Below are positions 54,056-64,000 of a stretch of DNA of 64,000 bases, one piece after another; positions within the stretch are counted from its first letter, which is position 1; each line of letters begins with the position of its first letter. Made by a program: the position numbers and the translations under genes. Below the pieces are notes generated by a model. The model made no database searches. It had not been told where the DNA came from and saw nothing but the letters and a program-made list of their open reading frames with translations. The stretch lies in contig DASSSZ010000005.1 in NCBI GenBank assembly GCA_035708165.1, positions 112,840 to 176,839 on the forward strand, given 5' to 3'. Source of the DNA: Minisyncoccota bacterium. Lineage in GTDB: Bacteria; Patescibacteriota; Minisyncoccia; Phycocordibacterales; UBA2100.

Positions 54056-54787
54056 ATGGCGCTCTCGCTTATCTCTCTCAATATCGAGCGGGACCGGCAC
54101 CTGCCCGCAGTCGAGGCGCTCCTGCAGGAAACGGCACCGGATGTGGCTTGCCTCCAGGAGGTTTTCGAAGCAGACCTGCCAGCACTCGCGAAAGCGGCCG
54201 AGGGTGAGGCGCTCTTCGTGCCGCGCATCCGCTATCCGAGCCCGCGCGGCCTCATGCCGGAAGGGCTCGCGATCATTTCCCGACGAGGGCTCTCCGATCA
54301 GGCATCAGCATGCTATGCCGGCGAGAAGGCCGCGATCCCGATCGCGGCGATCGACGGCTCCGTCGAGGAGAAGCAGCGCGACCAGCGCTATAGCATCGCG
54401 TCCTGCCTCGTCGAGAAGGATGGCGCCTCTTACCGCATCGTGACGACGCATTTCCCCTGGACGCCCGACGGCGAAGCGGATGCGTTCCAGCGCGATGCGC
54501 TCGCAGGGCTCTTCAGCGTGCTCGAGCCATTAGGCGAATTCGTGCTGACCGGCGATTTCAATGCGCCGCGCGGCAAGGAGATCTTCAGTGCGATCGCCGA
54601 GCGGTACGCGGATGCCGTGCCGCCCGCGTATGGATCTTCGATCGACGGACGCATCCATCGCGCCGGACCGATCCCGTACATGGTGGATGGCCTGTTCTCG
54701 ACGCAGGACTATCGCATCTCGGACGTCGTGATGCGCTGCGGCGTCTCCGATCACTGCGCGCTCGCCGGGGCAATCGAGCGCGCCTGA
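54056..54787 (+). CDS. endonuclease/exonuclease/phosphatase (EEP) family protein
   Basis: Start MALSLISLNIE at 54056. ...CLQEV..., VTTHFPW, LTGDFNAPRG and VSDHCAL are motifs typical of the EEP fold. Confidence 0.7.
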   Translation: MALSLISLNIERDRHLPAVEALLQETAPDVACLQEVFEADLPALAKAAEGEALFVPRIRYPSPRGLMPEGLAIISRRGLSDQASACYAGEKAAIPIAAIDGSVEEKQRDQRYSIASCLVEKDGASYRIVTTHFPWTPDGEADAFQRDALAGLFSVLEPLGEFVLTGDFNAPRGKEIFSAIAERYADAVPPAYGSSIDGRIHRAGPIPYMVDGLFSTQDYRISDVVMRCGVSDHCALAGAIERA

Positions 54788-57084
54788 TTCCCGCCGAGCC
54801 GCTCCGCGATGCCGTCCTCGACAGCCATCAGCGGCGCGCCGAAGGTGAGGCGGGAGAGCTCGGCGAGCTTCTCCGCGACCTCGGGGCTGCCGCGCGGAGG
54901 CAGCGGGATCGTCATATTGAACGCGCGCGTGGGCTGCCCGTGCACCAGGGGGCGGATGATCGCGTGCAGATTGGGGAGGGTGATGAGGTCGGTCGAGGCG
55001 AAGTTCGGCGCCATGTGCTTCTCCAGGGCCTCCGCGTCCTCGGTCCCCACGCGGAAGGAGACCAGCGTGCCCGCATTGCCGAAGACCGCATCGCGGATAT
55101 GCTCCGGCAGCTGCCCGAGGTACTGGTGCGCGATGGTGAGATTAAGGCGGTACTTGCGCGCTTCGGAGAGGATGGTCGTGATGGAGTCGGTGGTGAAGTT
55201 CTGGAATTCATCGATATAGAGGTAGAAGTCGCGCCGTTCCTCCTGCGCGACGTCATCGCGCCCGAGCGCAGCCATGAGGAGCTTGCCGGTGATCACCATG
55301 CCGAGCAGGTTCGCATTGATCTCGCCGATCCTGCCCTTCGGGAGCTTCACGATGAGGATCTTCCCTTCGTCCATCACCTGCCGGAAATCGAAGGCGCTCT
55401 TCACCTGGCCGATGATCGGCCGCATGTAATCGTTGCCGATGAAGCCGCCGAACTTCGAGGTGATATAGGGCGTCATGTTCGCGAGCGCGCCTTCGCCGCC
55501 GGCCTTCTCGGCCTCTTCGCGCCAGAAATTCGCGACGACAGGATTCCGGCAGCGCTCAAGCTTCGCGCGGCGCCACGCGGCATCGGTGAAGATGCGCGGG
55601 ACCTCGACGAGCGTCGCCGGCTCGACGGCAGCGTCTTCCATGAGCAGGAGGAGCGCGTTGCGCATGTACTGCTCGAACATCGGGCCCATCGTCTCCTCTG
55701 AGTAGAGGCGATTGAAGATGGATTGCATCTCGTTCACGATGAAGGTCTTCTGCTCCGGGCGGCTGGGGTCGAACTCGAGCATGTTGAGCCCGAGCGGGCG
55801 GCCGAGCTCCGAGGGGTCGAACACGATCACGTCCTCGATGCGCTCCGCCGGCACGAGCCCCAGGATCTCATCGGCGAGGTCGCCGTTCGGATCGATGAGG
55901 CACGCACCAGCGCCGCGCGCGATATCCTGCGCGAGCATGCCGCGGATGAGCGTGGACTTGCCGGTGCCTGTCTGGCCCACCATGTACACGTGCCGCCGTC
56001 TATCCTCGTCCGTGAGCCGCACGTCGCGATGCTCGCCCCGGAACTCGCTTTGGCCGAGCATGATGCCTTCGGCGGGGAGCGCCGGGGCTTCCGCTGAACG
56101 CGCCGAGTGCCAGGCGATGCGCGGGATATCCAGATCGGCAGTAGGCAGGTGGAAGATGCTCGCGAGCTCCTCGGTGTTCATCGGCATGGCGCCTTCGCCC
56201 GGCTCGCGGAACGCGTAGCGATACGCGAGGCTTTTCATATCCCGCGGCTTCTTCAGCCCGAACGCGTTCCGGGTAGGGCCGGCGAACTGGCCGAAGCTTC
56301 CGGCGATATCGAGCAGGAGGTCAGCCGCGCGGTCGCTCGATTCGGCTGCGACGATGATGCGCACTTCCGCCGAGAGCAGCGGCTTCGCGATCTTGCGCTC
56401 GAGCGCCTGCACGGCTGCATCATCGATAGGGCGGAAGCGCTCTTCATGAGGGTCCTCCTTGCGCGGGCTTCCCGCGAAGGCCTTCTTCACGTCGGTGAAC
56501 GCATTCTCGCTGAGGATGGCGGAAAGCTTCTCGCCGCCCTGCACGCGCTCGATCGCGCTCCGGACGGATTTCGCGAAGCTGCCAGGGGCAGGGCTGACGA
56601 TGATCTGGAGCGCGGCCCCGTCGCCTGCATCATTGAGCTTCCCCAGAGAGGAGAGGATCCCGGCGAACGTGTCCACCTCCGCTTCCGCATACGTGCGGAT
56701 CGGGAGAAGCGGCTTCTCTTTCATGGTGAGCGTGCCCCCGGCCGTCCGGCTTCCTTGGCCGAAGATCGTATAGTCGTCCGTCTCCTCGACGCGCGCACGG
56801 GGGAATAGCCCGAGGATCTGCTGCTCGGCGAAGCTGCGCTTCGCGCGGGGCACGGCGATATAGAAATGGATATCAGTCCCGACATTGTGCACCGCGACCT
56901 CGAAGACGAACGGTTCGCCGAGCGAGAGCAGGGATGCGAAGAGCTGCTCGCTGCGCTTGATATCGGAAAGCTCGTTCCGCGGATCGCGCTCCTCGCCGGC
57001 CGGACGCGGCAGCGTGATCTCGAGCAGCCGGAGCTCGAGCTGCTCCGCGAGATGCTTCTTGGAGAAGGGGAGAGCGAAGGCCAT
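54751..57084 (-). CDS. FtsK/HerA-superfamily P-loop ATPase, TraD/VirD4-like (type IV coupling protein/DUF87-type)
   Basis: Walker A VGQTGTGKST and Walker B YLYIDEFQNF. A ~330-aa N-terminal region of unknown function. 777 aa. Confidence 0.5.
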   Translation of the reverse strand: MAFALPFSKKHLAEQLELRLLEITLPRPAGEERDPRNELSDIKRSEQLFASLLSLGEPFVFEVAVHNVGTDIHFYIAVPRAKRSFAEQQILGLFPRARVEETDDYTIFGQGSRTAGGTLTMKEKPLLPIRTYAEAEVDTFAGILSSLGKLNDAGDGAALQIIVSPAPGSFAKSVRSAIERVQGGEKLSAILSENAFTDVKKAFAGSPRKEDPHEERFRPIDDAAVQALERKIAKPLLSAEVRIIVAAESSDRAADLLLDIAGSFGQFAGPTRNAFGLKKPRDMKSLAYRYAFREPGEGAMPMNTEELASIFHLPTADLDIPRIAWHSARSAEAPALPAEGIMLGQSEFRGEHRDVRLTDEDRRRHVYMVGQTGTGKSTLIRGMLAQDIARGAGACLIDPNGDLADEILGLVPAERIEDVIVFDPSELGRPLGLNMLEFDPSRPEQKTFIVNEMQSIFNRLYSEETMGPMFEQYMRNALLLLMEDAAVEPATLVEVPRIFTDAAWRRAKLERCRNPVVANFWREEAEKAGGEGALANMTPYITSKFGGFIGNDYMRPIIGQVKSAFDFRQVMDEGKILIVKLPKGRIGEINANLLGMVITGKLLMAALGRDDVAQEERRDFYLYIDEFQNFTTDSITTILSEARKYRLNLTIAHQYLGQLPEHIRDAVFGNAGTLVSFRVGTEDAEALEKHMAPNFASTDLITLPNLHAIIRPLVHGQPTRAFNMTIPLPPRGSPEVAEKLAELSRLTFGAPLMAVEDGIAERLGGNQARSIAPASAQ

Positions 57085-57089
57085 GCGGC

Positions 57090-57485
57090 TTAGATGAGCC
57101 CGCGCTGCGAGAGGGCATCGTAGAGCTTATCGACCAGCGCATCATGGAAGGCATCGAGGATGTACGGGTCTTTCGTGCGCGCATCCGCGATCGCAGCTGC
57201 GATGCCTTTCTCCTGGATCTCATCGATGAGCGCATTCACCGAGGCGGCGGTTGCCGGATCCGTATGGTCAAGGTAGCTGCCGCTCGAAGCCGCGGGATCC
57301 GCGGGGGCGGCAGCCGCCTGCGCGGCATCGTGCAGCGCATTGCCGATCGCCGCCTTGGCGATCTCCTGTGATGCGGCGCTTTCGATGCCGGCTTCGCGCT
57401 CGAGCACGCTGCGGCGCGATGCGATTTCCGTATTGATCGCTGCCACTTCCGCCTCGAAAGCGGGCGAGAATCGCTCCGGTTCCAT
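57090..57485 (-). CDS. hypothetical protein co-oriented immediately upstream of the TraD-like ATPase
   Basis: Start MEPERF at 57485. Helical and Ala-rich. 131 aa. Confidence 0.4.
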   Translation of the reverse strand: MEPERFSPAFEAEVAAINTEIASRRSVLEREAGIESAASQEIAKAAIGNALHDAAQAAAAPADPAASSGSYLDHTDPATAASVNALIDEIQEKGIAAAIADARTKDPYILDAFHDALVDKLYDALSQRGLI

Positions 57486-57569
57486 GCGCCAAGTATAGCA
57501 GCTTAGCGTTGAAGGAAGCCGTCGTTTCATGTATGCTGTGCAGACGCTGAGTCCGCCGACTCGGCGTAT

Positions 57570-57640
57570 TGCCGGATCGTCTAATGGTAGGACAACGGAT
57601 TCTGGCTCCGTTTATCTAGGTTCGAGTCCTAGTCCGGCAG
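57570..57640 (+). tRNA. tRNA-Gln, anticodon CUG
   Basis: TGCCGGA-TC-GTCT-AATGGTA-GGAC-A-ACGGA-TTCTGGC-TCCGT-TTAT-CTAGG-TTCGAGT-CCTAG-TCCGGCA-G. Confidence 0.85.
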
Positions 57641-57715
57641 CAGCTTAGTTTAGTATCGAAGGACCTAGAGGGGTATAAATGCTTCTGTTTCTACTCACCC
57701 CCCGAAAGGCCTATA

Positions 57716-60529
57716 ATGTATGGGTTGCCCATTATGGATTCTTACAAGTATGGGTCTAAATGGCGTAGGTGGGATTTGCACCTACATACACCAGAAACCC
57801 TAAAAGAAGATCAGTACACTGGAACGACGCCCGAGGAAAAGTGGGAGAATTTTTGCAATGATATAAACTCCACCGACGCTGAAGTATCGGTCGTGGGCGT
57901 AACCGACTATCTCCTCATCGATAACTACAGGAAATTCCACTCCTTCATCGATTCAGGGAAGATCACCAAGAAATTCGACCTTGTCATCCCAAACATCGAG
58001 CTTCGGCTTACCCCGGTGACCGGAAGCGGGACAGCCTTGAACCTCCACCTATTAATCGATCCTGCGTTCGTGGACCAGCTCGAGTCCCGCATTTACTCAA
58101 AACTCAAAATCAAAAGCGGCACGACGGAATACACCGCTCTTCGGGCTGACTTGATTCGTCTCGGTAAGACGATAGATGCGGCAGCTTCAGACGACGTCGC
58201 GTACAAGAAAGGAGCCGAGCAGTTCGTCATCGATTTCGATACCCTCAAAGGAGTCTTTGATAACGATCCCGACCTGCGTAACCACTGCCTCATTGTGGTG
58301 GCTAACAGCTCGCATGATGGAGCCACGGGTGTAACGCACCACGCAAGCTTCTTCACGGCTACCGGCTCGAGCCTCGATACTAAGCGACAGGCGATTTACA
58401 AATTTGTTGACGCTATATTCTCCGCTAATCCTAGCGACCGTACATACTTCCTCGGTAAGTCTTCCAGCGATACACGCGACATCGTCATCGACAAGTGCGG
58501 AAGTCTCAAGCCGTGCGTGCACGGATGCGATGCGCATACTAACGCGAAGATCTTTAAGCCGGATCAAAATCGATATTGCTGGATAAAGGCGAATCCTACG
58601 TTCGAGGGCCTACGACAAATCCTATTCGAGCCGGAGGAGCGCATCTGCGTTCAAGAGCTACAGCCGGATGAGAAGGAGCTTTATCGCGTTATCGACAAGG
58701 TGAAGCTGACCGATGCGAATTTCACTGCCGAGCCGCTCGAACTCAATCCGAATCTGAACGTAATTATCGGCAGCCGCTCATCAGGAAAAACGACGCTGCT
58801 TAACAGCATTGCTAAAGCGGTAGACGTATCTGAATACGAGCTGCGTCATAAAGATTCCCCGCCCATAAAGGAACCTCCAAGCGCAAACGTGTTCTGGCTC
58901 GACGGCGCGGAAAGCGGTGCTGCAGAAACGCAGAAAGGCATTACCTACATACCTCAAAACTACATAAACAGCCTCGCCGAAGCGACCGAGGAAAATTCGC
59001 CCATACTTGAGATCGCCGAGAATGCGCTCTTCGACAGCACAGGCGGCATTGCTCAGGAAAGGAAGGATTTAAATCTCAAAATCGAGCAACTTAACCGCAC
59101 CATCGGTAACGACGTCTACCAGCTTTTTGTTACCCGGAAGCAGATCGCCGAGCAGAAGGAGAAGATCAAAAAGATCGGCGACAAAAAAGGTATAGAGGAG
59201 CAAATCAAGAAAGTCGAAGCCGAAATCGCGAAGCTTCAAAAGGACCTTACCAAAGCTGAGGCTGCTACTTTAAAGAAGCTCCGTGAAGAGTATGCGGACA
59301 ATAAAAAGCAAATCGAGACCATTACTGCTGATGTCGAGACGCTGACCGAGGAAACCGCTGATGTCGAAAGGGGTGCCAGCTTTTTTGAGGAAAGATCGCT
59401 CAGCTTGAAATCCGAGGAGCTGTCACGAGAGCTTGGCGAATTCACTGGCAAGCTCCAGGATGAATACCTGCAAAAGTACGTAGCGTTCGTTAATAGGAAA
59501 AAGGAGGAGCTGGCCAAGGAAAAGAAAAAACTCGAGGAAGACAATAAGAAAATACTCGACAACAACAAGGTCCTTATTGATAAGGCAAAGCAGAACACGG
59601 CCGCCGATCAGAAAGTGAAGGAGAAGGAGGCTCAGGACAAAAAGCTCGCGGAAATATCGTCGGCAGAGAAGGCGCTCAAGACCAGCGAGGATGCGCTATT
59701 GGCCACGCTCACAAAAATCGTTCTGGCGCACAAGGAGCGCTCTAACGCCCGACATGCCTTCGTCGCGAAAGCAACCGGAGATCTGGAAGGGATCGAGTAC
59801 CGCGCAGTGGTGGGGATCGACACGGTGAAGCTCGATAAGTTCATGACGGATTTCGTGAACTTCCACAACTCAACCGGCGCACGTACCCAGCTCAATGCGA
59901 TTCCTGGCTATAAAACGGGCGAGGACACGGATGTTTCGACTCTGATAAAAAACGACAACATTAAGACAACCGCCGAACTTATTCTTAGCGATACCTTGAA
60001 GCTTAAAGCCGGCATCGATTTGCAGCGCGCCATCGAGGGACTGTTCGGCGACTTTGAATTCATCAACTACTCTCTCAAATATGAGGGCGACAACTACCCT
60101 GAAATGACCCCAGGCAAGAAATCTCTCGTCGTATTAAAGCTGCTCGTCGAATCCAGCGAGGATAAATATCCGATTCTCATAGACCAGCCAGAGGACGATC
60201 TCGATAGCCGTTCAATATCGGGCGAAATCGTCGATTTCTTACGCTCCAAAAAGAAGGAGCGACAGATTATCCTCGTCACACATAACGCGAACATTGCTAT
60301 CAAGGCAGATGCGGAGGAGATCATTGTCGCCAACCGTCACTCTACGCAGCATCCGAACAAGAATGCTGTCATGTTTGATTACACGACAGGCGCTATCGAG
60401 ACGAGCTTCGTAAATCCGTCTGCCGCATTTTCTCTTGACAAAATGGGTATGCGCGAGCATGCATGTGAACTTCTGGAAGGTGGTGAGGAAGCGTTCGAGA
60501 ATCGGAAGAATAAATATAATCTAAAGTAA
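57716..60529 (+). CDS. PHP-domain phosphoesterase fused to an SMC/OLD-like ABC ATPase (single-protein anti-phage defense candidate, Ppl-like architecture)
   Basis: N-terminal PHP motifs (WDLHLHTPET, ...SSHDGATGVTHHASF, CVHGCDAHT). ABC ATPase with Walker A IIGSRSSGKTTLLNSI, a ~250-aa coiled-coil insertion, Walker B/D-loop ILIDQPEDDLD and H-loop LVTHNAN. A TATAAT box lies 6 nt upstream. Confidence 0.8.
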   Translation: MYGLPIMDSYKYGSKWRRWDLHLHTPETLKEDQYTGTTPEEKWENFCNDINSTDAEVSVVGVTDYLLIDNYRKFHSFIDSGKITKKFDLVIPNIELRLTPVTGSGTALNLHLLIDPAFVDQLESRIYSKLKIKSGTTEYTALRADLIRLGKTIDAAASDDVAYKKGAEQFVIDFDTLKGVFDNDPDLRNHCLIVVANSSHDGATGVTHHASFFTATGSSLDTKRQAIYKFVDAIFSANPSDRTYFLGKSSSDTRDIVIDKCGSLKPCVHGCDAHTNAKIFKPDQNRYCWIKANPTFEGLRQILFEPEERICVQELQPDEKELYRVIDKVKLTDANFTAEPLELNPNLNVIIGSRSSGKTTLLNSIAKAVDVSEYELRHKDSPPIKEPPSANVFWLDGAESGAAETQKGITYIPQNYINSLAEATEENSPILEIAENALFDSTGGIAQERKDLNLKIEQLNRTIGNDVYQLFVTRKQIAEQKEKIKKIGDKKGIEEQIKKVEAEIAKLQKDLTKAEAATLKKLREEYADNKKQIETITADVETLTEETADVERGASFFEERSLSLKSEELSRELGEFTGKLQDEYLQKYVAFVNRKKEELAKEKKKLEEDNKKILDNNKVLIDKAKQNTAADQKVKEKEAQDKKLAEISSAEKALKTSEDALLATLTKIVLAHKERSNARHAFVAKATGDLEGIEYRAVVGIDTVKLDKFMTDFVNFHNSTGARTQLNAIPGYKTGEDTDVSTLIKNDNIKTTAELILSDTLKLKAGIDLQRAIEGLFGDFEFINYSLKYEGDNYPEMTPGKKSLVVLKLLVESSEDKYPILIDQPEDDLDSRSISGEIVDFLRSKKKERQIILVTHNANIAIKADAEEIIVANRHSTQHPNKNAVMFDYTTGAIETSFVNPSAAFSLDKMGMREHACELLEGGEEAFENRKNKYNLK

Positions 60530-61798
60530 AATTAGGTTTTTATTTTCCAGCTGTAGTTGGGATTTCAGGCAAGTGAGAAGATCTCGCCTCTCAAATATCG
60601 ACCCTTCGGTTAGCAGGTACTTCGCGTAGTTGCGAATATCGGCGTCCTTCACAGAATAATTCTCGTCTGCCTTGCCCATAATCCCTGAATGGAACTTCTT
60701 ATGCCGCTCAATCTCAGCCTCGAGCTTTTTCTTGATACCAGAGCGGTCAAGATCTATCTGGTCAATAATTTCCGTTAGTTGCGAGATAAGGACCTTCTCC
60801 TCAATGTAGCCTTCTTTGCAGTTGATATTCCGTGAGCGAGTGCAACCATAGTAGATGTACTTGGCGATCGAACCGTCCTTCAGGGTCTTGAATTTCTCTT
60901 GGGCCGTCACACCGGATCCGCAGGTTCCACAGGAGAGCAAACGAGTGAAAGCGAACTCTTTGTTTTTGCCTCGGGCTTTGATTTGAAGGTGAAGCTGCTT
61001 CTGCACCTCTTCGAAAAGTTCTCTGGATATGAGTGGCGTATGCTTACCCTGGAACCATCGGCCGCTGTTCTTGGGGTATTCAAAAGTACCGTAGTAGAAG
61101 TGGTTATTGAGAATGACGTATACGTTGCTCAGAGTTAGAGGTTTGCCGGTACGGGTAACGAATTTGATTTCCTTGAGCCAGCGATATACTTTCCTACCAC
61201 TCCAGCCTTCATTGGCTACTTTCTGAAAGAGTTCCTTCATAACAGGGGCTCGATCAGGATCTACGAACACCACGCCTTTCTGATCCTTATTTTTTGAATT
61301 GAGATAACCGGTTGGGGCTACTGAAGGCCAGAGGCCGAGCTCGCACTTGGTTTTGAGCCCGCGCTTCACATTGATGCTCTTGTTGTCGTTCTCCAGCTTC
61401 GCCTGGCTACCAAGGATCATGAGAAGGAACTTCTCATTGGGGTTGTTAGTGAAGCGTTGACTGTAAGTACGAATTTCAATGAGCTTCTTCTGGTCGAAGA
61501 GATCCACGATCGCCCCAAGGTCGCCGGCATTGCGGGATAGACGGTCCGGATGCCACACCAAGATCCCATTGAATTTACCCTCCCGAATATTGAGAAGGAG
61601 CTGGTTGAACACAGGCCGCTGGCCGGCATCCTTTGCGGAGTGCGATTCTCGGTACATATCGACCACATTCAGTCCGTCTCGCTGCGCTAAGGCCAACATC
61701 TCCTTAAGCTGGGAATCTATCGAAAGCGCCTGTTTTTCCTCGGCTTCGCTCGATTTTCGGGCGTACAGGCAGTACCTGACTGGCTCCTGGTTTTCCAT
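60521..61798 (-). CDS. large serine recombinase (serine integrase)
   Basis: Resolvase catalytic N-terminus VRYCLYARKSSEAEEKQALSIDSQ (nucleophile Ser). Recombinase domain. Zinc-ribbon CGTCGSGV...YYGCTRSRNINC plus a coiled coil. The start could alternatively be 61843. Confidence 0.85.
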   Translation of the reverse strand: MENQEPVRYCLYARKSSEAEEKQALSIDSQLKEMLALAQRDGLNVVDMYRESHSAKDAGQRPVFNQLLLNIREGKFNGILVWHPDRLSRNAGDLGAIVDLFDQKKLIEIRTYSQRFTNNPNEKFLLMILGSQAKLENDNKSINVKRGLKTKCELGLWPSVAPTGYLNSKNKDQKGVVFVDPDRAPVMKELFQKVANEGWSGRKVYRWLKEIKFVTRTGKPLTLSNVYVILNNHFYYGTFEYPKNSGRWFQGKHTPLISRELFEEVQKQLHLQIKARGKNKEFAFTRLLSCGTCGSGVTAQEKFKTLKDGSIAKYIYYGCTRSRNINCKEGYIEEKVLISQLTEIIDQIDLDRSGIKKKLEAEIERHKKFHSGIMGKADENYSVKDADIRNYAKYLLTEGSIFERRDLLTCLKSQLQLENKNLILL

Positions 61799-61911
61799 AC
61801 AACACAACACATGCCCGAAGCCGGGGAAGAAGTCCATACCCAAGCTGGTGGTAAGAAATACGGCTTTAAACCAAGGCGATTTCGTGATAAAATCATGAAA
61901 ATCCTTATTTT

Positions 61912-63510
61912 ATGGCCACGTTGAATTGGATCGGAAAAGAGGCGGTGGCAAACCACGACAAAGAGGTGCCTTTCAAGTTGCTTGAGAAAGTCCCGAGCGC
62001 ATCCGTCGGTAAGGAATCAAAGAATCTCGTCATTCACGGCGACAATCTAGAAGCACTTAAAGCACTTTTGCCTTTCTATCAAGGCGAGGTTAAGTGCATT
62101 TATATTGATCCTCCATACAACACCGGAAACGAGGATTGGGCATACAACGATAATGTAAGTTCTCCCAAAATTCGAGAGTGGATCAAGAAAACTGTGGGGC
62201 GAGAAGGGGAAGACCTCACTAGACATGACAAGTGGCTTTGCATGATGTATCCCCGTCTTAAACTCCTTCGTGATCTTTTACGGGATGACGGGGTCATATT
62301 TGTCAGTATCGATGACAATGAACAGCACCACCTCAAGATACTGATGGATGAGATTTTCACAGCTCGGAATTTTATTGGGCAGATTACCGTCGTTGGAAAC
62401 CCACGAGGTAGAGATTATGGTGGAATTGCGCGCATGCACGACTACCTTCTTGTTTACTCGAAGGAGTTTGGAAAGGCAGATATCAACAACTTGAACGATC
62501 CTGATAAGGAGTTTCCTTTTGAGGACAGCAGGGGAGGTTTTGAGATTCGCGAGCTACGCAATCGCAATATTGCTTTCCATATAGGGAATAGGCCTAATCT
62601 TCATTACCCCTTTTATGTCAATCCAAAGAAGAAAGACGAGAATGGTTTTTTTGAGATCTCGCTTGAGAAAAAGAGTGGCTGGACTGAAGTTTTTCCGAAA
62701 GAATCTCAGGGATTTAAGACTGTTTGGCGTTGGGGGAAAGCGCGTTCTCAGCAAAATCTGAATACTGAAATTGTTGCAAAGAAGATGATGGATGGTGGTT
62801 ATCAGATTGTTGAAAAGTATCGTGAGAGAACACGGATGGCTCGATCTGTCTGGTGGGACAAAGATGATAATACTGAAAAAGGAACGCTGGAGGTTAAGAA
62901 TCTTTTTGATGGCAAGAAAGTGTTCAATTTCCCTAAGTCCATGGAAATGGTACGGAAGGTGGTTGAGATGGGTACTGGACCAGACGACATTGTCCTTGAT
63001 TCGTTTGCGGGATCGGGTACAACAGGCCACGCTGTGCTCGATTTAAACAAAATGGATGGCGGACACCGTCGCTTTATTTTGGTTGAAATGGAAGATGACG
63101 TCGTGAAGAAAATCACTGCTGAAAGGATCAAGAAAGCTATAAAAAAGTACGACTATGACGGAGGCTTTGAATATTGCGAGCTCGCTTCCGCCCTTTTTGA
63201 TCAGAATGGATTGATAAATGAGTCGTGTTCATATGCCGACTTGGCTTCTTACATTTTCTTCACCGAGACGCAAACAAACGTCGATAAAAAAGCAATCAAA
63301 AATCCATTCGTTGGTGAGAGTGGCGGGATTTCCTACTACCTCGTTTACGCTGGCCGTGGAAAAAATGACTTAACTCGAGCTTCACTCAGCAAGCTCAAGA
63401 TCGCCGGTCCTGCAGTCGTATATGCTGATCGTTGTCTTGTGGACGAGGATGAACTGAAGGAGAAAGGTATTACCTTCAAACAGATCCCGTACGAGATAAC
63501 AATCTACTAA
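61912..63510 (+). CDS. mod: Type III restriction-modification system methyltransferase (Mod), N6-adenine type
   Basis: Motif IV DPPYN, motif I FAGSGTTG and Mod-like overall architecture. 532 aa. Confidence 0.9.
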   Translation: MATLNWIGKEAVANHDKEVPFKLLEKVPSASVGKESKNLVIHGDNLEALKALLPFYQGEVKCIYIDPPYNTGNEDWAYNDNVSSPKIREWIKKTVGREGEDLTRHDKWLCMMYPRLKLLRDLLRDDGVIFVSIDDNEQHHLKILMDEIFTARNFIGQITVVGNPRGRDYGGIARMHDYLLVYSKEFGKADINNLNDPDKEFPFEDSRGGFEIRELRNRNIAFHIGNRPNLHYPFYVNPKKKDENGFFEISLEKKSGWTEVFPKESQGFKTVWRWGKARSQQNLNTEIVAKKMMDGGYQIVEKYRERTRMARSVWWDKDDNTEKGTLEVKNLFDGKKVFNFPKSMEMVRKVVEMGTGPDDIVLDSFAGSGTTGHAVLDLNKMDGGHRRFILVEMEDDVVKKITAERIKKAIKKYDYDGGFEYCELASALFDQNGLINESCSYADLASYIFFTETQTNVDKKAIKNPFVGESGGISYYLVYAGRGKNDLTRASLSKLKIAGPAVVYADRCLVDEDELKEKGITFKQIPYEITIY

Positions 63511-63514
63511 TCCT

Positions 63515-64000
63515 ATGAAGCTCAAGCGTTATCAAACAAACGCAATAGAAACGCTGGATCAATTCCTGGATCTCGTCAGGAAGATGAAGCCGCGGCATGC
63601 CTTCAATGAGATAACGGAGCAGGTCTACAACCATGAGTGGTTCGGGGACGTACCTTTTGTGTGTATTCGTATCCCCACGGGCGGCGGAAAAACGTTCGTT
63701 GGCTGCAAGGCAGTCGAACGGATCATGAGCACAGTCCTCCAGAACAAGATGGACACCGGCATTGTGATGTGGTTCGTACCATCAGACTCCATCAAGACTC
63801 AAACGTTGAAGAAGTTCCGAGATCCTAAAGATGCCCACTACCAAGCGCTGAACGAAGCATTCGGGACGAAGTTCAAAGTCTTTTCAAATGAAGAGGCTTT
63901 GACAATTTCGCCGGAGGACGTGACGAATAATCTCTGCGTTATCGTCGCCAGTCTCGATGCATTCAGGAAAGACGCGTCTATTCAGAAAAAGTACAAGGTC
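63515..64000 (+). CDS. res: Type III restriction enzyme Res subunit (helicase/ATPase), 3' end outside the window
   Basis: ATG 5 nt after the mod stop. Walker A IRIPTGGGKTFVG and the beginning of a DEAD-like helicase. Confidence 0.8.
   Translation, partial: MKLKRYQTNAIETLDQFLDLVRKMKPRHAFNEITEQVYNHEWFGDVPFVCIRIPTGGGKTFVGCKAVERIMSTVLQNKMDTGIVMWFVPSDSIKTQTLKKFRDPKDAHYQALNEAFGTKFKVFSNEEALTISPEDVTNNLCVIVASLDAFRKDASIQKKYKV

Follow-up and report, generated by a model that had tools for sequence, protein, structure and literature searches.

The 64,000-nt stretch of Minisyncoccota DNA analysed here as a whole (the window, from contig DASSSZ010000005.1) contains close to its right end a gene for a large serine recombinase (LSR, here also called integrase; 60521..61798, minus strand). 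It is preceded along the forward strand by an intact tRNA-Gln(CTG) gene (57570..57641, plus strand; found by ARAGORN and scoring 61 bits with the Rfam tRNA model) and by a gene for a TrlF-type ATPase, and it is followed by the genes of a type III restriction-modification (R-M) system. With a probability of about 0.85, the recombinase gene encodes the integrase of a small integrative island that has entered a high-GC Patescibacteria (Paceibacterota) genome at the 3' end of this tRNA-Gln(CTG). The island is probably 7-12 kb long, with 6.4 kb inside the window.

The integrase open reading frame (ORF) encodes 425 aa and shows no interruption. Pfam recognises a Resolvase domain (PF00239; 2.4e-24, residues 11-153), a Recombinase domain (PF07508; 1.3e-17, residues 181-269) and a Zn_ribbon_recom domain (PF13408; 24.2 bits, residues 284-339), the latter slightly below its gathering score of 25.3 and present as a precomputed match on many close homologues. 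The catalytic R14 and S16 of the YARKS motif, together with D85, R86 and R89 of HPDRLSR, are invariant across 42 homologues, as are the zinc-binding C290, C293, C319 and C327, and S16 aligns with the catalytic serine of SprA. The closest solved structure is precisely this SPbeta integrase, SprA/YokA (E 5e-15, residues 16-397). An AlphaFold2 model of medium confidence (predicted local distance difference test score, pLDDT, of 67) displays, in order, a catalytic domain, the long helix E (120-138), a helical recombinase domain (184-277), beta hairpins (296-319) and C-terminal helices at 334-347, 355-372 and 388-409, followed again by beta strands at 415-424. When this model was compared with the PDB by Foldseek, the best 12 matches were large serine integrases only (SprA, Bxb1, PhiC31 and LI). 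The best PHROG is likewise an integrase (phrog_95, 6e-70), and no PADLOC model matches the protein. The predicted product is, thus, an intact large serine integrase with its catalytic and zinc-binding residues complete. This agrees with the initial annotation, made from the sequence alone, which had proposed a large serine recombinase with a Cys4 zinc ribbon.

The start codon at 61798, already chosen in the initial annotation, is backed by the family alignment, in which the Met of 'MEN' lines up across homologues. The public annotation (NCBI, 438 aa) begins 39 nt farther upstream, with an ATG located within a promoter-like box, (C)TAGACTT (window 61799-61843), that is conserved and in most homologues forms a stop codon. 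That start is too far upstream, and it is corrected here. The conserved region 61799..61870 (minus strand), recognised in an upstream alignment of 30 clade members as TGGACTT-N17-CATGTG...GTTGTATG, would be the putative and nearly leaderless promoter of the gene. A promoter and terminator scan of the island returned nothing beyond shuffled expectation.

Base composition separates the island from its host. Between window positions 1 and 57,500, GC content is 0.60-0.71 (mostly 0.62-0.71), GC at third codon positions (GC3) is near 0.87, and the genes are chromosomal ones, including RecG, LigA, GatA, a PilB-type ATPase and ATPase subunits. Past ~57.6 kb, and through to the last position of the window, the values are 0.43-0.52 for GC and 0.48-0.61 for GC3. 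The drop, from 0.65-0.68 to 0.43-0.52, coincides with tRNA-Gln, and overall the island averages ~0.48 versus ~0.66 for the host. The island is this low-GC block, running from the tRNA-Gln 3' end past 64000, and the left edge of the foreign DNA is fixed to the base at 57641/57642. The intact integrase is the best candidate for moving it, as the initial annotation had supposed. The island does not take in the wider region with the VirD4/TraD-like 'coupling protein' gene at 54751-57084 (minus strand). This gene, with DUF8128 and DUF87/TrwB domains, has a product with 3864 strong homologues in Patescibacteria, thousands of relatives being 53-69% identical, and it keeps ftsX, ftsE and prfB as neighbours in other genomes. 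On these grounds it is a conserved high-GC host gene, outside the island and outside any conjugative element. Nothing in a plasmid collection matched 57000-64000 by megablast.

With its GC of 0.65-0.68 the host stands apart from the 47 loci of the integrase family with a measurable host flank (0.31-0.645), which might raise the suspicion that a low-GC block was joined to a high-GC contig during assembly or binning, in which case the integrase would carry no information on this genome. Such a chimera is highly unlikely. The break matches to the base the regular integration point of the family, after an intact tRNA-Gln and the sequence motif described below, and other high-GC hosts (loci L039, 0.635, and L020, 0.61) carry lower-GC islands of this kind. 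Furthermore, a separately assembled 9.6-kb Logan contig holds ftsX, the VirD4-like gene, the tRNA, TrlF and the integrase gene, inside which it ends, in one contiguous sequence; because this independent contig spans host genes through integrase, the junction is not a binning artefact. Across the family, integrase GC tracks host GC loosely (r = 0.61), being far lower than the host value in GC-rich hosts, the present one included.

Relatives of the integrase were then compared. The best 120 database relatives are 78-100% identical, the identical protein being annotated as 'recombinase family protein' in a metagenome-assembled genome (MAG) of Candidatus Paceibacterota. When one genome per species was scanned, 455 stretches with relatives emerged, nearly exclusively from Patescibacteria. 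Of these, 80 were compared with 10-kb flanks; the related loci (designated by L numbers) numbered 81 at that stage and 100 later. In 57 of the 81 loci the integrase has a tRNA-Gln gene (CTG or TTG) downstream of it, on the other strand and tail to tail with it, at distances from 80 bp to 10 kb. Integrases of other clades (36-62% identity; L040, L041, L042, L049, L061, L078 and L106) are found tail to tail with tRNA genes for Glu, Arg, Leu, Lys and Ile. The distribution of tRNAs over the family suggests that the target specificity of these recombinases has diversified.

Directly after the tRNA, at 57642..57675 (plus strand), the window carries the 34-nt motif AGCTTAGTTTAGTATCGAAGGACCTAGAGGGGTA, taken as the element-side arm (P' arm) of attL, the left attachment (att) site. 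The clade of the window (clade 0) comprises 30 integrases linked at >= 72% identity, and its motif A, reading CAGC|AGTCTAGTTTAGTATCGAAGGACCnnGAGGGGTCA over ~35 nt abutting the tRNA 3' end, occupies that place in ~24 of 28 loci. In the window it is present in one copy (0 expected by chance), with 1 mismatch in the 30-nt core. In clade 1 (23 integrases) a different motif B (…ATGCTAAGTCAGGTGACTGAGACGCAT) is found in 14 of 16 loci, and smaller clades show motifs of their own. The post-tRNA motif is therefore most plausibly the half of attL that belongs to the element, because it changes with the recombinase clade even though the hosts span 31-65% GC; the tRNA-Gln 3' end (...GGCAGC) would correspondingly be the host half (B arm) together with the common core. 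Nucleotide likeness of the window to related loci ends at ~57674-57680, that is, around the end of this motif.

The opposite arm was found at the far end of related elements. A P arm, GGTACCAGACCnnACATCGCAGC, was seen in 22 loci, which belong to the window's clade and to neighbouring ones; it lies beyond the integrase on the same strand, 5.3-12.3 kb from attL. Its end is conserved (...ACATCGCAGC), and the sequences beyond GCAGC are unrelated to one another, L030 excepted, where motif A follows directly after the P arm to give an attP-like junction. Only (C)GCAGC is common to the tRNA end and the P arm, and the crossover is therefore placed at the tRNA 3' terminus, which accounts for the tRNA remaining intact. 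The shared core is compatible with a short crossover. The comparison with related genomes and the search of the flanks, both proposed in the initial annotation, have in this way provided a clade-specific attL motif, a P arm in 22 loci and evidence of variable cargo; for the window itself, the attL arm was found after tRNA-Gln and the attR arm was not.

Three earlier ideas about the far end were discarded. A search for inverted or direct copies of motif A returned just same-strand copies at tandem junctions. A crossover inside a GACC-N6-GGTCA palindrome, suggested by an exact 15-nt repeat in L108, was dropped once the ACATCGCAGC arm had been seen in 22 loci, and the same palindrome, on which a first P arm had been modelled, turned out to lie ~90 nt away from the real arm, on its outer side, and to resemble an operator. 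In the window the palindrome, as GACC-N6-GGT(C/A), lies inside the P' arm at 57662-57675 and is followed by a -10-like TATAAAT, with the start of TrlF 40 nt further on; at the other end of related elements, ~90 nt outside the attR core, a GACC-N6-GGTCA copy is again accompanied by a -10-like box. Written as GACC-N6-GGT(C/T)A, the palindrome was recorded at window 57662-57675, at L108 6880 and 14066 (identical over 15 nt) and at the distal sites of L006, L012, L013, L020, L023, L027, L030 and L031, each copy with a -10-like box within the next 15-35 nt. It looks like an operator shared by two promoters that would face outward or towards the cargo.

That elements of this family move is inferred from tandem arrays, from an empty site in a relative and from the GC contrast. 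At L031 (14602-21053) a tandem array at tRNA-Gln displays three motif copies in a row, and two units of 4.3 kb and 2 kb that have no integrase lie between the integrase-bearing element and the tRNA, each bounded by P and P' arms that are 92-93% identical to those of the unit next to it; such units may be satellites that are mobilised in trans. Junctions of this type occur in L027 and L030 as well, and L030 also retains a fragment of a second integrase. An unoccupied site is provided by L103, where the same host synteny (VirD4-like gene, ftsX, ftsE and prfB) leads to tRNA-Gln and then to unrelated genes, with neither motif nor integrase, the host flanking protein being just ~68% identical to that of the window. 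In L104 and L105, contigs that encode the identical host ATPase, the sequence diverges right after the tRNA end. Extra tRNA-like pieces were also observed, namely a second tRNA-Gln-like gene split by a ~45-nt insert at L105 1-140 and a partial copy of the tRNA 5' half at L103 9480-9540, which may be recombination scars or intron-bearing tRNA genes.

Several observations weigh against reading the window's element as a functional island of this kind. The P-arm pattern is absent from the entire window, and the attR of this copy is therefore placed beyond 64000, where it presumably lies. The last base of the palindrome is altered in the window (GGTA for GGTC), a change that might be meaningless or might represent the beginning of decay. 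Compared with textbook LSR sites, the att arms have greater length and a less evident dyad symmetry, and the exact crossover position was deduced from the limits of shared sequence in natural junctions. None of the genes was recognised as a recombination directionality factor, and the viral contigs of IMG/VR lack motif A. Activity of this copy, its excision and a circular form are presumed, and the control of excision, the crossover dinucleotide and the attR of this copy are likewise matters of deduction.

The island could alternatively be part of a complete temperate phage, with the gene serving as a prophage integrase. The best PHROG is indeed a phage integrase, integrases of other clades (~60% identity) adjoin TerS, TerL and Sie-like genes, and 20 IMG/VR contigs encode relatives at 47-60% identity. 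On the contrary, the attL-attR span in the window's clade, 5.3-12.3 kb, is too short for a tailed phage, IMG/VR contains neither a clade-A integrase nor motif A, and the visible 6.4 kb consist of defence-type genes only, with no virion or packaging genes. A complete prophage is, thus, improbable, although the integrase family probably has phage roots and the window's clade may be phage-derived or satellite-like.

In the proposed mechanism, whose steps are those established for large serine integrases, integrase dimers would bind attP on the circular element and attB on the chromosome, the latter consisting of the tRNA-Gln 3' end plus the following host sequence. attP would comprise the P arm (...GGTACCAGACCnnACATCGCAGC), the core and the P' arm (AGTCTAGTTTAGTATCGAAGGACCnnGAGGGGTCA), its junction taking the form P arm-GCAGC-AGCTTAGTTTAGTATCG..., and attB would read tRNA-Gln...GGCAGC plus the sequence that now follows the P arm. 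The dimers would synapse via the coiled-coil motif, cut both strands at a central dinucleotide in or beside (C)GCAGC, exchange the ends by subunit rotation and religate them. The product would be an intact tRNA with the P' arm directly 3' of it, that is, the attL seen at window 57636-57675. Within the element the integrase gene faces attL, with a one-gene slot between them (TrlF in the window) and a second, divergent slot upstream (the type III R-M system). Related elements continue from there, in varying combinations, with a DUF5681 gene, the LOOT RNA considered below, an outward promoter with the GACC-N6-GGTCA palindrome and the P arm (attR). Element lineages would trade cargo with one another, for which homologous recombination at the conserved backbone pieces would be the simplest route. 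Knowledge of how serine integrases work is unchanged by these proposals.

The slot next to attL is occupied in the window by the gene at 57716..60529 (plus strand), which encodes a TrlF-family AAA-like ATPase of 937 aa (NCBIfam NF045780, 548.6 bits versus a cut-off of 350). PADLOC returned partial Ppl, GajA and AriA matches, and the protein is, as a candidate assignment by sequence similarity, a Ppl/Gabija-like ABC ATPase and a potential anti-phage effector. The PHP part of its previous label, 'PHP-ATPase', derives from the NCBIfam TrlF/Ppl similarity only, Pfam reporting no PHP domain for TrlF at E <= 0.01. An HxH-type motif (WDLHLHTPE) is visible at the N-terminus.

The TrlF-type and integrase genes share 60521-60529 (CTAAAGTAA), 9 nt tail to tail in both frames, the TAG stop of the recombinase reading as CTA on the plus strand and the ATPase gene ending in TAA. 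The initial annotation had described this overlap correctly and had considered it unusual, which it is not: the convergent downstream ORF overlaps the integrase stop in 29 of the 55 related loci having such an ORF, most often by 4 nt. By these counts a tail-to-tail overlap with the integrase is the norm in the family.

It had also been suggested that the recombinase cassette landed beside a TrlF gene already at the site, in which case TrlF would lie outside the mobile unit. TrlF stands next to this integrase family in the window alone among the 81 loci compared, where it has no nucleotide match elsewhere, and its overlap with the integrase could be read as a secondary join. Nonetheless, TrlF sits between the attL arm and the integrase, and an element arriving at attB would lie between the tRNA and an older insert rather than past that insert. 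In true tandem arrays (L027, L030 and L031) the boundary carries an attP-like junction, and none is found between TrlF and the integrase. GC3 of TrlF, 0.61, resembles that of the island and not the 0.85-0.9 of host genes (host value ~0.87), and in relatives the same slot holds other large ATPases that often overlap the integrase stop. A landing beside a resident TrlF is accordingly very unlikely, and the evidence favours a TrlF gene carried inside the att-bounded unit.

The second slot, divergent from the integrase across an intergenic gap of 113 bp, begins with the type III R-M methyltransferase gene (mod; 61912..63510, plus strand; PADLOC MTase_III, 529 bits; Pfam N6_N4_Mtase, 2.7e-34), whose product is 56% identical to the Mod in the equivalent position of L039. 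It is followed by the 5' part of the type III Res helicase-nuclease gene (63516..64000, plus strand), which exceeds the window and is recognised by nucleotide likeness to the Mod-Res genes of L039 (73%); the L039 gene matched by Res belongs to cluster c47, which has a ResIII domain. TrlF and the type III R-M system are probably the cargo of one mobile unit.

The position of the integrase beside a divergent mod gene also invites the idea of a DNA invertase that switches mod in phase variation, and homologues are labelled 'DNA invertase Pin-like' by the Joint Genome Institute (JGI), with PHROG 125, a DNA invertase, as a secondary match of the window protein. This is scarcely credible for a protein with the full LSR architecture and 425 aa, compared with the ~190 aa of the invertase form. 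No inverted repeats bracket the mod promoter or 5' end, pairs of 14-23 nt within 57400-64000 occurring at chance level only, and integrases of the same clade adjoin type I, II and III R-M systems as well as non-R-M cargo.

Comparison of related islands indicates that both slots are used in relatives as well. The slot upstream of the integrase, mostly with genes divergent from it, contains in relatives type I R-M genes (HsdM, HsdS, HsdR and a YgjP-like gene), often with an AAA_15 ATPase, type III R-M systems, an Eco57I-like enzyme with HNH and GHKL proteins, an EcoRI-type methylase with GmrSD, or LexA-fused C5 methylases. The last of these form cluster c11 (L005 7227-8804, plus strand, and 7 other loci), in which a LexA DNA-binding domain and an S24 peptidase are fused to a C-5 cytosine DNA methylase in a protein of 525 aa. 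The slot between the integrase stop and attL often contains one large gene, such as a KAP NTPase, a superfamily 1 (SF1) helicase or an uncharacterised 1311-aa protein, and this stretch is, to judge from the compared loci, a regular cargo slot with large ATPases in relatives. Cargo varies among integrases that are 85-91% identical, those closest to the window's (91%) carrying quite different genes, and at nucleotide level the window island resembles other loci solely at the tRNA with its motif, in the integrase gene and, in L039 only, in Mod/Res.

An RNA was also noticed with these islands. The LOOT RNA (Rfam RF03000) has been an orphan motif known only from metagenomes (PMC7779021). It was detected at L014 2181-2303, L016 1926-2056 and L047 2569-2693 (all on the minus strand) and at 36 further loci, with 75-88 bits versus a gathering score of 46.4; the count of 39 in 100 loci was made with a covariance model of our own. 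In 38 of the 39 its strand is the tRNA-sense one and its place is 5' of the integrase, next to it or with R-M cargo between, and in L030 an att-bounded unit encloses it. Neither the window nor its three closest relatives (L108-L110) yielded a match. The orphan LOOT RNA travels with these islands, and the motif gains from this family a genomic home.

Among known systems, the phage-type LSRs are the best sequence and fold matches. SprA, Bxb1, PhiC31 and Listeria A118/LI share with the window integrase the same three-domain architecture, in the window integrase with a putative embedded coiled coil, and the catalytic residues, and they integrate via a short core common to element and host, as would the window integrase. 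They differ from it in that identity is 15-21% in Foldseek structural alignments and the window integrase is shorter (425 aa), and in that the elements of its clade are 5-12 kb islands with no virion genes and no recognised directionality factor. A further difference is the target, a tRNA 3' end, which tyrosine integrases typically use and serine integrases seldom do.

Staphylococcal cassette chromosome (SCC) elements, moved by CcrA/CcrB/CcrC, offer a second parallel, being likewise LSR-driven cassettes at one conserved site that form tandem or composite arrays and include recombinase-less units; R-M cargo is also frequent in them. The window family differs in its phylum, its att sequences and its target, tRNA-Gln instead of rlmH (orfX). 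CcrB is the best NCBIfam model for the window integrase; yet its score, 137.8 bits versus a cut-off of 900, rules out a Ccr orthologue, and CcrC (64.1 versus 900) and CcrA (57.6 versus 700) score lower still.

Defence hot spots have been described for P2/P4-like prophage and satellite integrases and for Tn7-like elements with defence cargo (PMC8649781). These systems resemble the window family in having a conserved mobility backbone and fixed slots in which anti-phage genes are swapped; they differ in relying on tyrosine integrases or a Tn7 transposase rather than a serine integrase, in their hosts and in the far larger size of their elements. Patescibacteria nzgw456 has been reported to carry a complete type I R-M system on a genomic island (PMC12455944), which agrees with the window family in phylum and in the kind of cargo; that paper mentions neither a recombinase or integrase nor a tRNA target. 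The MAG nzgw419 (locus L046), from the same study series as nzgw456, carries a member of the present integrase family.

No description of this integrase family in Patescibacteria was found in a literature search, and large LSR surveys may include members. The window element is, thus, a well-understood kind of element in an under-described family. Taken jointly, the comparisons permit a broader and more tentative picture, to which we give a little less than even odds as a whole: that of an undescribed, phylum-wide Patescibacteria family of 5-12 kb serine-integrase 'mini-islands'. In this picture each integrase clade would be specialised on a tRNA 3' end, mostly Gln and also Glu, Arg, Leu, Lys or Ile; the islands would be the main platform by which R-M and other anti-phage genes are swapped in tiny genomes; two cargo slots would be fixed, with integrase-less satellite units mobilised in trans; and the LOOT RNA would be a backbone component, which might regulate the excision of the element or the expression of its integrase. 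Patescibacteria are difficult study objects, believed to depend on a small number of defences. One conserved integrase family with readable att sites offers a simple handle on their defence cargo in metagenomes, and the att sites, as natural attB/attP pairs, might serve to develop integration tools for the phylum.

A second conserved element was observed within the 40-75 nt that follow the attL motif, on the way to the integrase stop, with the consensus GCATACC-NGC-YGAGN-GCN-GTATTCAGAACAAAAA. It is absent from the window and was recorded in L012-L016, L019, L020, L022, L025, L036, L043, L044, L046, L047, L059 and L068. Its 4-bp hairpin includes one fully covarying pair (UA 5, GC 4, CG 4; none broken), and in several loci a terminator-like stem-loop follows on the tRNA-sense strand. 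This hairpin element could be a small RNA, or a terminator shielding the integrase from antisense read-through.

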